A DNA stretch of 41,222 nucleotides from a phage, in the sequence record NC_105863.1; one strand, given 5' to 3'. The position numbers and the translations under genes were made by a program. The notes beneath the pieces were generated by a model that saw nothing but the letters and a program-made list of their open reading frames with translations, searched no databases and had not been told where the DNA came from. Numbering within the stretch: position 1 is the first letter of the stretch; every line of letters begins with the position of its first letter. This document shows positions 3,351-37,201 of this stretch, piece after piece.

Positions 3351-3371
3351 AGCCCCGAAAGGGGCTTTCTT
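3351..3371 (+). terminator. rho-independent terminator-like hairpin (GCCCCGAAAGGGGC + T-run)
   Basis: Perfect 5-bp GC stem with GAAA loop followed by TTTCTT; same hairpin sequence recurs at 4921-4940. Confidence 0.5.
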
Positions 3372-4989: not shown

Positions 4990-5005
4990 AACTATTCGAA
5001 TAGTT
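4990..5005. promoter_or_regulatory. perfect 16-bp palindrome AACTATTCGAATAGTT abutting a -35 element (candidate operator)
   Basis: Sequence equals its own reverse complement; half-site AACTAT/ATAGTT recurs at early promoters (26455, 30162, 32269). Confidence 0.4.
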
Positions 5006-5032
5006 GACTTTTCACCAAAAATGTGCTAAGCT
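5004..5032 (+). promoter_or_regulatory. sigma70-like promoter (TTGACT -17- TAAGCT with extended -10 TG)
   Basis: -35 TTGACT 5004-5009, 17-bp spacer, TGcTAAGCT at 5024-5032; located in 340-bp noncoding gap upstream of spanin genes. Confidence 0.45.
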
Positions 5033-5256
5033 CCACCTGAGCTTGTGAAGTATGAACAAGCGACCGCGGCGCGGGCAGGTAACGGAGCGGGACGTAAGTC
5101 CTGAGTGTAGTTACGCTGACGCGTTCGGAAGGGCCATACTCTATTGCTTGTGTAAAAAGTAACTGGTTTACTGAGATTACGCCGTTTCTATGTTTAAATG
5201 ATAAGGTCTAGCGCCCCGCTTTAAGGCGGGGCTTTACTTATCGAGAAAGGGGAAAC

Positions 5257-13685: not shown

Positions 13686-13722
13686 TAAGTGAATAGTATC
13701 CTATTATGTTGGGGTGTGCAAG
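13686..13722 (-). promoter_or_regulatory. sigma70-like promoter (TTGCAC -17- TACTAT), inverted duplicate of 35824-35860
   Basis: Reverse complement of 13686-13722 is identical over 37 bp to 35824-35860; reads TTGCAC, 17-bp spacer, TACTAT on minus strand, upstream of minus-strand ORFs 13651 down to 11256. Confidence 0.5.
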
Positions 13723-13828
13723 TAATGTGTTAGAATTATTTTGCGCCTAGTGTCGCACACGAAAAGCGGGTGGTTCCCGCCTGGCGCATTAACCTTAACC
13801 AGTAACCTCTTAACCAAAGGATTAAATA

Positions 13829-30161: not shown

Positions 30162-30190
30162 ACTATAATAGCTAACTATTCAGGTGTCAA
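30162..30190 (-). promoter_or_regulatory. sigma70-like promoter (TTGACA -17- TATAGT) with palindromic CTATAATAG core
   Basis: Consensus -35 and near-consensus -10 on minus strand in the 55-bp gap between nuclease and DUF2815-like genes. Confidence 0.55.
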
Positions 30191-32268: not shown

Positions 32269-32297
32269 ACTATAATAGTGAACTATTCACTTGTCAA
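32269..32297 (-). promoter_or_regulatory. sigma70-like promoter (TTGACA -17- TATAGT) with palindromic AACTATAATAGTG core
   Basis: Consensus -35/-10 on minus strand in divergent intergenic region 32238-32361. Confidence 0.55.
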
Positions 32298-32361
32298 TGG
32301 GCTTTTCTAAAATAATTAATATGGTACTATTCACATATCAACTGACTAAGGAGTAATTGAC

Positions 32362-35013: not shown

Positions 35014-35226
35014 TTATTTATCGCCCGCAAACCACGCGTGCGCAGAATCATAGAAACGACATTTACTTAACACGTCTACTGGCATCTTAATAATGCGTGT
35101 AGGTTCCGACAAATGATTAGGCTTACATATTTCTGCATAGAATCCGCTGTCAGTAATTTCTGACGCAAACTTAAACCAGTATTTAACTTTACCGTTTTCA
35201 AAGTAACAACCCATACGTCCAATCAT
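35014..35226 (-). CDS. hypothetical protein (70 aa)
   Basis: ORF with ATGA overlap on upstream HTH gene stop. Confidence 0.4.
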   Translation of the reverse strand: MIGRMGCYFENGKVKYWFKFASEITDSGFYAEICKPNHLSEPTRIIKMPVDVLSKCRFYDSAHAWFAGDK

Positions 35227-35405
35227 TTCACGTTCTCCTTAATCCATGCTTCAACTTTATTACGGTCAAATGTACCTGGTAAACGGCGACCCATAACCTT
35301 AATACAACAATCAGGGAATTTACCACTGCGCAACCAGTTATTAATTGTCTGACGTGTTACCCCAATACGCTCGGCTACTTCATTCTGTGTCATGTAATGT
35401 TGCAT
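35223..35405 (-). CDS. small helix-turn-helix DNA-binding protein (60 aa)
   Basis: MQHYMTQNEVAERIGVTRQTINNWLRSGKF.. is a classic HTH; ATG 35405 has RBS AGGAGA; ORF track start 35519 would run through the promoter, so the shorter form is preferred. Confidence 0.55.
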   Translation of the reverse strand: MQHYMTQNEVAERIGVTRQTINNWLRSGKFPDCCIKVMGRRLPGTFDRNKVEAWIKENVK

Positions 35406-35436
35406 TTCTATATCTCCTGTTTGTTTGGTGAAGCTG

Positions 35437-35465
35437 AGTATAGGATAGCGGGAATGTAAAAGCAA
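35437..35465 (-). promoter_or_regulatory. sigma70-like promoter for leftward early operon (TTGCTT -17- TATACT)
   Basis: Read on minus strand about 30 nt upstream of HTH gene start. Confidence 0.45.
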
Positions 35466-35502
35466 CCAATCCCTGCAATATTTAATCTTTACAAAAAAGT
35501 TA

Positions 35503-35532
35503 TTGAAAGTTCTTGACACATGTTTGTATAAT
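35503..35532 (+). promoter_or_regulatory. sigma70-like promoter for rightward transcription (TTGAAA -18- TATAAT)
   Basis: Consensus -10 TATAAT at 35527-35532; divergent from 35437-35465. Confidence 0.5.
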
Positions 35533-35559
35533 GGTTTTGGGACTTGTATATATTACGGA

Positions 35560-35591
35560 GTTGACGAACCCTCCCCGAGGGATTCGTCAAC
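35560..35591 (+). promoter_or_regulatory. long imperfect inverted repeat / hairpin in rightward leader (GTTGACGAACCCTC-CCC-GAGGGaTTCGTCAAC)
   Basis: 14-bp stem with one bulge, no T-run; lies in a 350-bp noncoding AT-rich region. Confidence 0.4.
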
Positions 35592-35824
35592 CCCTCCCAG
35601 ACAGCTGAGATGCTTGTTTTAGGGTTTAAGGATAAGTGTATCTAAATCTCATTTAAAGAAGTAACCCACTGAAATATCTACTGTTTCTTAATGTGCCGTA
35701 GATTCGCAACCGTAAAAATGTAACGATTATTGGGCAGGCTTAAGGCCTACCCTTTAGTTACCAAGTAATAAGAATAAAGGCACAACCTTCCCTAAAGAAT
35801 CACAACGGCAACGTAACTAATCTC

Positions 35825-35853
35825 TTGCACACCCCAACATAATAGGATACTAT
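35825..35853 (+). promoter_or_regulatory. sigma70-like promoter (TTGCAC -17- TACTAT), copy of 13686-13722
   Basis: Part of 37-bp exact inverted repeat; about 35 nt upstream of gene 35888. Confidence 0.5.
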
Positions 35854-35887
35854 TCACTTATCGAAACGAGACAGAGGAGTGAGGGTT

Positions 35888-36073
35888 ATGTTTAAACGTG
35901 GTCAGTTGGTTAAATACTCCGACGATAAACACGGCATAATTGAATTAAAATCTGCTTTATTTCCAGGAAAGTACGTAGTTACCGTGCAAAATGTGAGAGG
36001 AGTAAATTCACAAATATACGTAGCGGAGGAGAACTTAAAACTCATCGGCAACAATTTTAAATTTAAAGGGTGA
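35888..36073 (+). CDS. hypothetical early protein (61 aa)
   Basis: ATG 35888 with RBS AGAGGAG (ORF track GTG 35879). Confidence 0.45.
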   Translation: MFKRGQLVKYSDDKHGIIELKSALFPGKYVVTVQNVRGVNSQIYVAEENLKLIGNNFKFKG

Positions 36074-36074
36074 A

Positions 36075-36278
36075 GTGATGGAAGAATTATTTGAAGAACT
36101 GAAACATCATGATTTCGAGGAAATATATTTCGTAGCTGAACGCTACGAGGTGCATCTGGCGGACGGTATAACGGTTATTACATCTACCAGCGAGCGAATG
36201 TTAAATAGCTTACGAGCAATACGAACGGCATCGAATCATGATGCTTGTGCCGACGACGCTGAGGGAGGTTGCCGTTAA
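36075..36278 (+). CDS. hypothetical early protein (67 aa, acidic)
   Basis: Tightly follows previous ORF. Confidence 0.4.
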   Translation: MMEELFEELKHHDFEEIYFVAERYEVHLADGITVITSTSERMLNSLRAIRTASNHDACADDAEGGCR

Positions 36279-36481
36279 TGCGAATCCGTATAACTGACCG
36301 CAGGCTTGTCCGTATAACTGACCGCAGGCTTGTCCGTATAACTGACCGCAGGCTTATAGATTTCGGTATCTCGGTAGGTGATGTTTTTCCGGCGTTCAGC
36401 ATCAACCATTATGGTTTTATGATTGAGTACAAAGGGTCGTTATTGTTCGTGTATCGGGATGAATGTGAGGTTCTGGTATGA
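36269..36481 (+). CDS. hypothetical protein with RITDRRLV x3 repeat (coding status uncertain)
   Basis: TTG-start ORF whose N-terminus is encoded by the tandem DNA repeat; supported only by ATGA coupling to the next ORF. Confidence 0.3.
   Translation: MPLMRIRITDRRLVRITDRRLVRITDRRLIDFGISVGDVFPAFSINHYGFMIEYKGSLLFVYRDECEVLV
36286..36355. repeat. tandem direct repeat, 3 copies of 24 bp (CCGTATAACTGACCGCAGGCTTGT)
   Basis: Copies at 36286-36309, 36310-36333 (identical) and 36334-36355 (22/24); both strands stay open across it. Confidence 0.9.
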
Positions 36482-37141: not shown

Positions 37142-37170
37142 TTGCACACTAAGATAGAATAGGCTACTAT
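37142..37170 (+). promoter_or_regulatory. sigma70-like promoter (TTGCAC -17- TACTAT), third member of TACTATTCA family
   Basis: Same -35 and -10 hexamers as 35825-35853, with related spacer (AATAGGcTACTATTCA). Confidence 0.5.
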
Positions 37171-37201
37171 TCATTTACACAAACGAGAGGGGAGACAGAA
37201 T

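Follow-up and report, generated by a model that had tools for sequence, protein, structure and literature searches.

What is the noncoding stretch between the two divergent early operons of a Kagunavirus for? The question is raised by positions 35406-35887 of NC_105863.1, a phage sequence of 41,222 nucleotides (nt) that was analysed over its whole length and is called the window below. The 901 bases around this locus match 199 phage records at 80-99% identity, all of them Escherichia Kagunavirus or Salmonella Jerseyvirus (Guernseyvirinae), and the window is a Kagunavirus genome. In annotated relatives the locus has on its left a leftward operon (a helix-turn-helix (HTH) regulator, two small genes, the primase-helicase and the remaining replication genes) and on its right a long rightward series (small early genes and lysis genes, then terminase, head and tail genes); judged on the gene table of the relative Bas71, it is the longest noncoding stretch. 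The original prediction, made from the letters of the window, described a divergent early control region and offered a replication origin or an RNA-level regulatory element as its function. Comparative evidence supports the control region, and our tentative answer, to which we give a probability of roughly 0.45, is that a virulent Kagunavirus has its immediate-early control region here, with a leader that acts in cis as RNA to set read-through of a terminator.

The literature on Kagunavirus and Jerseyvirus transcripts, noncoding RNAs and termini describes no RNA or control element here, the sole published mention being in silico promoter and terminator predictions for phage fBC-Eco01 (PMC9825357). 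In sequence records the locus is either unannotated or overlain by spurious small open reading frames (ORFs). It is indeed AT-rich and ORF-free, as first described, with a GC content of 0.39 against 0.51 in the window and no plus-strand ORF of at least 40 amino acids (aa); a 39-aa ORF with a TTG start begins within the promoter. A small-ORF reading was rejected, as the plus strand holds no credible ORF and the minus-strand ORFs annotated in BASEL phages are not intact here. Minus-strand "hypothetical protein" ORFs inside the leader (loci L002 and L059, Bas71, 35852-35953 and 36041-36220; loci L187-L189 and L191) are not conserved in the window and, from this comparison, are probably annotation artefacts of the BASEL and other records.

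Promoter, hairpin and leader

Rightward transcription is predicted to start at about 35539-35541, downstream of a promoter called P1 here. P1 is the sole rightward site in the genome to match the sigma-70 consensus at 11 of 12 positions (there are three such sites overall), and the plus-strand promoter proposed at 35503-35532 thereby holds up. Its -35 and -10 hexamers are invariant in the ten phages that share the window's version of the leader (type A), and it is annotated as a host promoter in fBC-Eco01. The reported hairpin begins about 20 nt past the predicted start, and a terminator-like hairpin lies about 195 nt downstream of that start. The inverted repeat at 35560-35591 is real: its arms form a stem of 14 bp that is closed by a CCC loop and has a single bulged A, it is called by a repeat finder (35557-35571/35580-35594) as one of just four close inverted repeats in 41 kb, and its 40-nt fold (35557-35596), at -23.8 kcal/mol, is equalled but not surpassed in stability elsewhere in the window. 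Whole genomes shuffled in blocks give folds of -21.4 to -24.0 kcal/mol, so that on a genome-wide scale the energy of the hairpin is by itself borderline; shuffling only the 39%-GC intergenic region gives -11.4 +/- 1.9 kcal/mol versus -24.0 for the hairpin, and none of 300 shuffles is as low. The hairpin is invariant in the ten A-type phages.

The predicted A-type leader RNA has a minimum free energy of -63.4 kcal/mol (z = -2.86 against dinucleotide shuffles). Among the ten A-type phages the nucleotide diversity of the locus is lowest in the leader, at 1.7%, and rises to about 5% in the flanks and 5.6% in the HTH coding sequence next to it; a diversity about three-fold under that of the neighbouring coding sequence indicates purifying selection on noncoding sequence. 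The leader is probably not the continuous 350-nt 5' untranslated region first described, because the terminator-like hairpin at 35732-35759 divides the stretch. Rfam contains no match to 35400-35900 beyond chance-level ones even at E up to 10, and none at E up to 1 to the other leader variants (types B, C and D); a scan of the whole window returned only int-alpA at 13740-13804.

Exchangeable leader modules

The intergenic region matches 389 records, only 20 of them over its full length, and the reason becomes apparent when variants from forty IMG/VR loci and several GenBank records are compared. The first 64 nt, beside the HTH gene, are common to types A and B, while the next ~200 nt occur as A (the window), B, C (with a Jerseyvirus form) or D. 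Judged from these alignments, P1 and the ~200 nt after it form an interchangeable unit, of which at least four unrelated versions exist. Each version carries its own near-consensus rightward promoter followed by G+C-rich hairpins, and hairpins of unrelated sequence occupy the position equivalent to that of the reported one. In a multi-variant alignment all versions then converge on the words (G/C)TCTATT, AAGTnnCTGA, TTTCT and TGCCGTAR, after which come one of three alternative terminator-like hairpins, the block GAATCACAACGGCAACGTAAC and a second promoter, P2. The version is independent of its neighbours: an identical HTH protein is found with types A and B, and a 97%-identical primase-helicase occurs with both the A/C and the B/D 3' modules.

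The primase-helicase itself has two forms, ~97% and ~69% identical to that of the window. Seven loci (L004, L007, L008, L009, L012, L015 and L021) have the 69% form, with the B2 3' hairpin, GGTGCCTTCGGCACC after a CTCA repeat, in the six that include the 3' end of the leader; L009 ends before the hairpin. The word AAGTnnCTGAT is, on the complementary strand, a perfect consensus site for integration host factor (IHF), WATCARNNNNTTR, in types B, C, D and Jersey (e.g. L003, L024, L035 and L061). In the window's A-type leader (35661-35680) we read this word with one mismatch (TTTCAG), and the intergenic region of the window has no perfect IHF site. A search of IMG/VR for distant relatives with the degenerate gapped pattern AAGTNNCTGA..TGCCGTAR was uninformative, being dominated by chance matches, and loci with distant HTH proteins (L038-L042) were set aside as relatives for their unrelated contexts.

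Evidence for selection on RNA pairing

All four leader types fold better than their dinucleotide shuffles (z = -3.87 for B, -3.41 for C and -3.28 for D, besides the value for A given above). In type B, a long-range helix pairs CCGCGGNGC with GCN'UU(C/U)GG; two of its G.U pairs are invariant, and one position is seen as U-A, A-U and C-G. Here 96.4% of cells are paired, against 30-44% when the partners are slid, and the covariation score is 0.216 against 0.132 in shuffles, none of 500 exceeding it. The inner hairpins of type B are swapped for unrelated hairpins in three subtypes. Type C, with its Jerseyvirus form, is a rod of four stacked helices with a hypervariable cap for which there are four alternative hairpins; 98.9% of cells are paired, four pairs have changed on both sides, and all one-sided changes yield G.U on the plus strand, which would be C.A on the other. 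As compensatory changes and G.U pairs valid only on the plus strand are found in both types, the unit folds as RNA. The earlier suggestion of an RNA-level regulatory element thereby gains support, from covariation in sister variants as well as from the strong promoter, the better-than-shuffle folding in all variants, the low variability of the A-type leader and the terminator flagged on the plus strand in relatives, described below.

A terminator-like hairpin in a near-invariant 3' module

Downstream of the exchangeable part lies a 3' module, at least 80% of which is carried by 223 of 334 records and in whose alignment only the loop of the hairpin varies. In relatives this hairpin reads GGGCAGGC-TTAA-GGCCTGCCC followed by TTTAGTT, a 9-bp stem with seven G-C pairs and then TTTAGTTA; it is flagged as a plus-strand terminator in fBC-Eco01 and S101, and the fBC-Eco01 record annotates it as one. 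One relative has a G.U pair in this stem, which pairs on the plus strand only.

A second cassette ahead of the lysis and structural genes

With the B-type leader as query, a paralogue of ~78% identity was found at a second locus in nearly all relatives, A-type phages included; it covers 4990-5256 of the window and is 95-99.6% identical in 179 records (Table 1). The promoter of this late cassette has the same sequence as in B-type early modules, and fBC-Eco01 annotates promoters here. The structured domain continues with the words UUCGGAAGGGCC and CUCUAUUG, then AAGUAAC and CGCCG; such single-stranded words and junctions are conserved between B-type and late copies. The helix is kept in 15 of 15 sequences of a joint alignment (A4) of early B-type and late copies, in which two positions show three pair types each, and the diverged Jerseyvirus T102 retains the helix and the single-stranded words along with a terminator of its own. 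A covariance model (R1) built from this alignment, comprising the hairpin, the CCGCGGNGC/GCN'UUCGG helix and UUCGGAAGGGCC..CUCUAUUG, has its only strong match in the window at 5037-5149 (122.8 bits, E = 1e-33), and over 65 loci its matches are confined to B-type early and late copies. The C-type and D-type domains have no second locus, each occurring in one place per record. The late cassette has no Rfam match, and BASEL records place a 36-aa "hypothetical protein" over it (Bas71_0007).

The ribosome-binding site (RBS) and ATG (5257) of an Rz-like spanin gene follow directly after the late terminator with no promoter between, so expression of this gene from the late promoter needs terminator read-through. 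The occurrence of this design a second time, ahead of the lysis and structural genes, thus points to read-through control and not to a replication origin.

Table 1. Coordinates of the features of the early locus and the late cassette in the window
Feature	Position	Strand	Sequence or remark
HTH protein	35223-35405	-	Pfam HTH_17, phrog_66
Leftward promoter-like site	35437-35465	-	-35 TTGCTT (35465-35460), 17-nt spacer, -10 TATACT (35442-35437); HTH-primase/helicase operon
P1, sigma-70 promoter	35503-35532	+	TTGAAA-18-TATAAT, A-rich tract upstream; 11/12
Predicted A-type noncoding leader RNA	35539-35760	+	~220 nt, from P1 start to terminator-like hairpin; ends inferred
Reported hairpin	35557-35594	+	arms 35560-35573/35577-35591 and two extra G-C pairs; apical element of 5' domain
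Core words	35661-35700	+	AAGTAAC, ACTGA, TTTCT, TGCCGTAG; common to all leader variants and late cassette
Near-invariant 3' module	35690-35790	+	A-type and C-type Kagunavirus and Salmonella Jerseyvirus; 334 phage records
Terminator-like hairpin	35732-35759	+	GGGCAGGC-TTAA-GGCCTACCC then TTTAGTT; flanking stem GTAAC/GTTAC (35720-35724/35757-35761)
Block upstream of P2	35797-35817	+	GAATCACAACGGCAACGTAAC, immediately upstream; kept in all Kagunavirus variants, nearly so in Jerseyvirus
P2	35825-35856 (hexamers to 35853)	+	TTGCAC-17-TACTAT; near-palindrome AATAG-N4-CTATT (35841-35854) overlapping
RBS and ATG (35888) of first rightward small gene	35873-35890	+	AGAGGAG..GAGGG; product MFKRGQL..., phrog_12538
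Late promoter	4990-5032	+	perfect palindrome AACTATTCGAATAGTT (4990-5005), -35 TTGACT (5004-5009), 17-nt spacer, TGc-TAAGCT (5027-5032, extended -10)
Late structured 5' domain	5037-5149	+	hairpin and helix as in type B; paralogue of B-type early leaders
Late intrinsic terminator	5213-5239	+	GCCCCGC-TTTAAG-GCGGGGC (5213-5232) then TTTACTT; strong

Proposed control of read-through

From the observed sequence features, conservation, mosaic structure, RNA-type covariation in sister variants and second cassette, we infer a function for the leader RNA, together with the ends of the transcript and termination at the hairpin. Host RNA polymerase would begin at P1 and make a ~220-nt structured noncoding leader, of which the reported hairpin would be the first element, and would then meet the conserved terminator-like hairpin upstream of the separately controlled P2 and the small early genes. 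Promoter, leader and terminator would act as one cassette, the same design serving at 5004-5239 ahead of the spanin, scaffold and capsid genes. The leader would set the fraction of polymerases that pass the promoter-proximal terminator, and possibly later ones, into the long rightward unit, in which further plus-strand terminators are found at 3351, 5213 and 11217 and good promoters are few. The mode may be attenuation or processive antitermination, like that of lambda PR'-tR', nut or HK022 put, and the terminated product would accumulate as a small RNA.

Several observations weigh against this reading. Some concern the A-type leader itself, which shows no covariation among the ten phages because it is invariant across them. 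Model R1 does not match it (6.6 bits, E = 5.6), so the A-type domain is no homologue of the B/late domain and shares with it just the architecture and the short 3' words. Alone among ten A-type relatives, the window has A for G at 35749, so that C35735 faces A35749 and the pair is broken; the C.A mismatch costs 6.7 kcal/mol (from -17.1 to -10.4), the scanner makes no terminator call in the window, and the U-tract is weak (TTTAGTT, 5 of 7 U). Other points concern the design. The four 5' domains are unrelated in sequence, which is hard to reconcile with one shared polymerase-binding or ligand-binding fold, and P2, lying between the terminator and the genes, makes the early genes independent of read-through from P1. 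No alternative antiterminator pairing was found, and the literature yielded no transcript mapping for any relative. No N-like or Q-like protein was identified among the neighbours, the whole proteome not having been searched for Q families, and the neighbouring regulator is only a generic HTH_17 protein. The idea that it is an AlpA-type antiterminator was set aside as speculation, since the HTH_17 match is generic and, among solved relatives, none falls below E = 0.017.

Relation to known systems

The closest layout is that of lambda PR', its 194-nt "6S" leader and tR', the site of Q antitermination, where a strong host-type promoter, a noncoding leader of ~200 nt and an intrinsic terminator precede a long operon and the terminated leader accumulates as a small RNA. 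Promoter, leader, proximal terminator and long operon are found in this order at 35503-35759 and at 5004-5239, and the late cassette has exactly the layout of PR'. Palindromes abut or overlap promoters in both systems, here at P2 and the late promoter, none being found at P1. Unlike at PR', a second promoter stands after the early cassette, and the leader RNA is here under structural selection, as seen in the covariation. The Q mechanism is not known to require selection of this kind.

The putL and putR RNAs of HK022 are factor-independent processive antitermination RNAs of ~70 nt, with two stem-loops of conserved sequence, that bind the zinc-binding domain of the RNA polymerase beta' subunit (PMC9378689). 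Like them, the leader is a structured RNA just past a strong early promoter and ahead of terminators, and there are two copies per genome in different operons; the -10-like word reported early in the putL transcript also has a counterpart, TATATT at 35549-35554 of the A-type transcript. Whereas put RNAs resemble each other, the present leaders, compared with them by description, are ~200-260 nt long and have at least four unrelated 5' domains, and this larger size and diversity argue against homology to put. The lambda and P22 nut sites and the rrn leaders (boxA and boxB) likewise have a hairpin followed by a conserved single-stranded word, and (G/C)UCUAUUG, found in the late cassette and in types B, C and D, agrees with boxA, GCUCUUUA, in 6 of its 8 positions. 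The boxA word (C/U)GCUCUU(U)A does not occur in 35539-35760, the A-type leader lacking even the variant word; a search of ten neighbouring ORFs gave no arginine-rich N-like protein, though a small novel one may exist. Membership in the lambda PR'-tR', nut or HK022 put families is not established.

Riboswitches and attenuators share with the B-type and late copies the conserved junction nucleotides, the variable, covarying peripheral stems and the terminator right before an RBS; unlike riboswitches, the leaders belong to no Rfam family, and four unrelated 5' domains would mean four sensors. T7, at R0.3 and its primary origin, also has strong early promoters followed by a structured, AT-rich noncoding stretch before the first early gene, and T7-like replication proteins are found here as well; in contrast to T7, no phage RNA polymerase has been recognised, the locus includes a terminator and a second promoter, and the evidence favours selection on RNA pairing.

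Alternative explanations

Two other readings of the structured RNA are reasonable rivals. In one, which we consider unlikely though the stronger of the two, the locus would be a stand-alone gene for a trans-acting small RNA, an abundant early product of ~220 nt, ending at the terminator, that is directed at targets in the host or the phage or sequesters a host protein or defence system as a decoy or sponge; the swapped 5' domains would be alternative "warheads". Promoter, structured RNA and terminator are the anatomy of such a gene, P2 frees the downstream genes from P1, sequence is strongly conserved within types, and the exchange of at least four unrelated 5' domains among otherwise near-identical phages is typical of accessory or anti-defence loci. 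The search for targets speaks against it: against the rest of the phage genome the leader has only complementary matches of 11-14 nt (E at least 1.7), and A-type and B-type leaders have no blastn match in 5,426 E. coli genomes, on which ground a host mimic or antisense target was rejected. The interrupted U-tail (UUUAGUU) is, moreover, weak for an RNA of the Hfq type, and the late paralogue, directly before a gene without an intervening promoter, fits a cis role better. Slightly less probable again is a passive 5' element, in which the hairpins would be only RNase III or RNase E processing sites or stability sites, as at T7 R0.3 and in the lambda N leader, and any long hairpin would suffice. 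That unrelated hairpins of similar size and position occur in all variants fits this, as does the C/Jersey rod with its hypervariable cap. It is harder to account in this way for conservation within types that exceeds that of the neighbouring coding sequence or for conserved single-stranded motifs and junctions such as UUCGGAAGGGCC and CUCUAUUG, and the conserved terminator and the duplicated cassette are left unexplained.

The remaining alternatives place the function in the DNA. A T7-like, transcription-activated replication origin, at which transcripts from the P1 promoter prime synthesis or open AT-rich DNA beside the replication genes, was the other function originally put forward, and we now regard it as improbable. 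The locus lies between divergent operons and adjoins the primase-helicase operon, combines 39% GC with a strong promoter, has an IHF-consensus word in most variants and coincides with the cumulative GC-skew minimum, in phages with a T7-like replication gene set. The skew minimum, however, coincides with the switch in gene orientation; 35406-35887 contains no iterons and no repeat family of at least three copies, and the DnaA box TTWTNCACA is absent from the region, its lone match in the genome, at 5149, being within chance. The covariation and the plus-strand G.U pairs indicate selection on RNA and not on duplex DNA, and the near-invariant 3' module is missing from phages with a 97%-identical primase-helicase, so that the cis element does not track the initiator; none of the tests made of iterons, DnaA box, skew and primase-helicase tracking supports an origin. 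Least probable, and by a long way from being likely, is that the 3' module is a packaging initiation (pac) site. Cleavage of pac in bacteriophage P1 needs IHF, and an IHF-like word adjoins the module. Jerseyviruses package by a headful mechanism like that of bacteriophage P1 (PMC10783031), and five GenBank Jerseyvirus records (templet, sidste, horsemountain, blauehaus and dunkel) are linearised inside a 45-nt stretch of the module, equivalent to 35665-35708. These five have different start bases, and their consecutive accessions and shared naming style suggest one submitter. The common cut may reflect a habit of curation or may hint at physical ends. Templet, cut at GTGC|CGTAGATTC, is without a terminal repeat; PhageTerm found no termini in the A-type phage fBC-Eco01 (PMC9825357); the module is missing from B-type and D-type phages and lies ~5-6 kb away from the terminase genes. 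Contig ends in IMG/VR were uninformative as a sign of physical termini.

Other promoters and neighbouring genes

The two weaker promoters of the original prediction fared less clearly than P1. The minus-strand promoter at 35437-35465 retains its -10 in the A, B and C/Jersey variants compared, and its S101 counterpart (TTGATT-17-TATACT) is flagged at 9/12, but the site itself scores 8/12, under the scanner threshold, and is weak by consensus. Similarly, the second plus-strand promoter at 35825-35853 is conserved and belongs to a repeated block but scores only 7/12: the 37-nt block that holds P2 recurs exactly at 13.7 kb, and its 18-nt core has six copies in the window where none is expected. 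The fBC-Eco01 paper lists seven "phage promoters" with a P2-type consensus, predicted by PHIRE (PMC9825357). The block GAATCACAACGGCAACGTAAC was not found upstream of other P2-type sites in the window.

The near-palindrome TGAATAGT-nnn-CTATTAT (AATAG-N4-CTATT) occurs in six copies, at 13690-13707 (minus strand), 30165-30182, 32272-32289, 32316-32333, 35839-35856 and 37156-37173. It fills the spacer of both leftward 11/12 promoters (30190-30162 and 32297-32269) and overlaps the -10 of P2, and the same half-site, everted, is found in AACTATTCGAATAGTT (4990-5005) of the late promoter. A phage regulator, possibly the HTH_17 protein, probably uses it as its operator. The int-alpA match noted above is on the plus strand, scores 36.9 bits against a gathering score of 35.8, and is flanked by the tail assembly chaperone gene (ATG 13829) and, on the other side, by a leftward promoter of the P2 type (13722-13685).

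The HTH gene belongs to the early class in the sole Kagunavirus RNA-seq study (PMC12645636). Ten neighbouring ORFs match only HTH_17, DUF551, DUF7438 and PHROGs of unknown function. In Bas71 the replication genes are T7-like (a Gp2.5-like single-stranded DNA-binding protein, a family A polymerase and a primase-helicase), and no phage RNA polymerase is annotated there. Nearby, the small ORF 36269-36481 contains a perfect 3 x 24-bp tandem repeat, TCCGTATAACTGACCGCAGGCTTG, at 36285-36356; copy number in relatives is 1, 2 or 3, and many lack the gene. The repeat was rejected as a set of iterons, being variable in number and found in only some relatives. In Salmonella Jerseyvirus a stretch of 1.0-1.2 kb rightward of the HTH gene is without annotation (L061, S101, 919-1917; L062, SS3e, 945-2175) and holds repeated modules of the form GCCG(T/A)A(G/A)GATTC ... 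hairpin ... AGAATAAAGGCAC as well as a second strong terminator; an unannotated homologue of the window's first rightward gene is found at position 1511 of L061.

Implications

It is conceivable, though doubtful, that the cassettes form an undescribed class of exchangeable promoter/RNA/terminator units, at least two per Guernseyvirinae genome, whose nascent RNA reprograms host polymerase for read-through or senses a cellular signal. If so, temporal gene control would come from the cassettes in phages where neither a phage polymerase nor N or Q has been recognised, and each of the four unrelated 5' domains would represent an independent solution or a specificity type. Kagunavirus and Jerseyvirus belong to the phages most often isolated as candidates for the therapy or biocontrol of E. 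coli and Salmonella, with ~390 GenBank records matching the region. The A-type module is shared by the BASEL phages Bas71, 72, 75 and 76, for which a derivative of E. coli K-12 serves as host. The locus supplies candidate new RNA families for Rfam and offers compact promoter-leader-terminator parts for engineering small phage genomes. For the biology of these phages, a conserved modular leader RNA with a paralogous late cassette may provide a testable handle on how early-to-late control is achieved with host polymerase alone.

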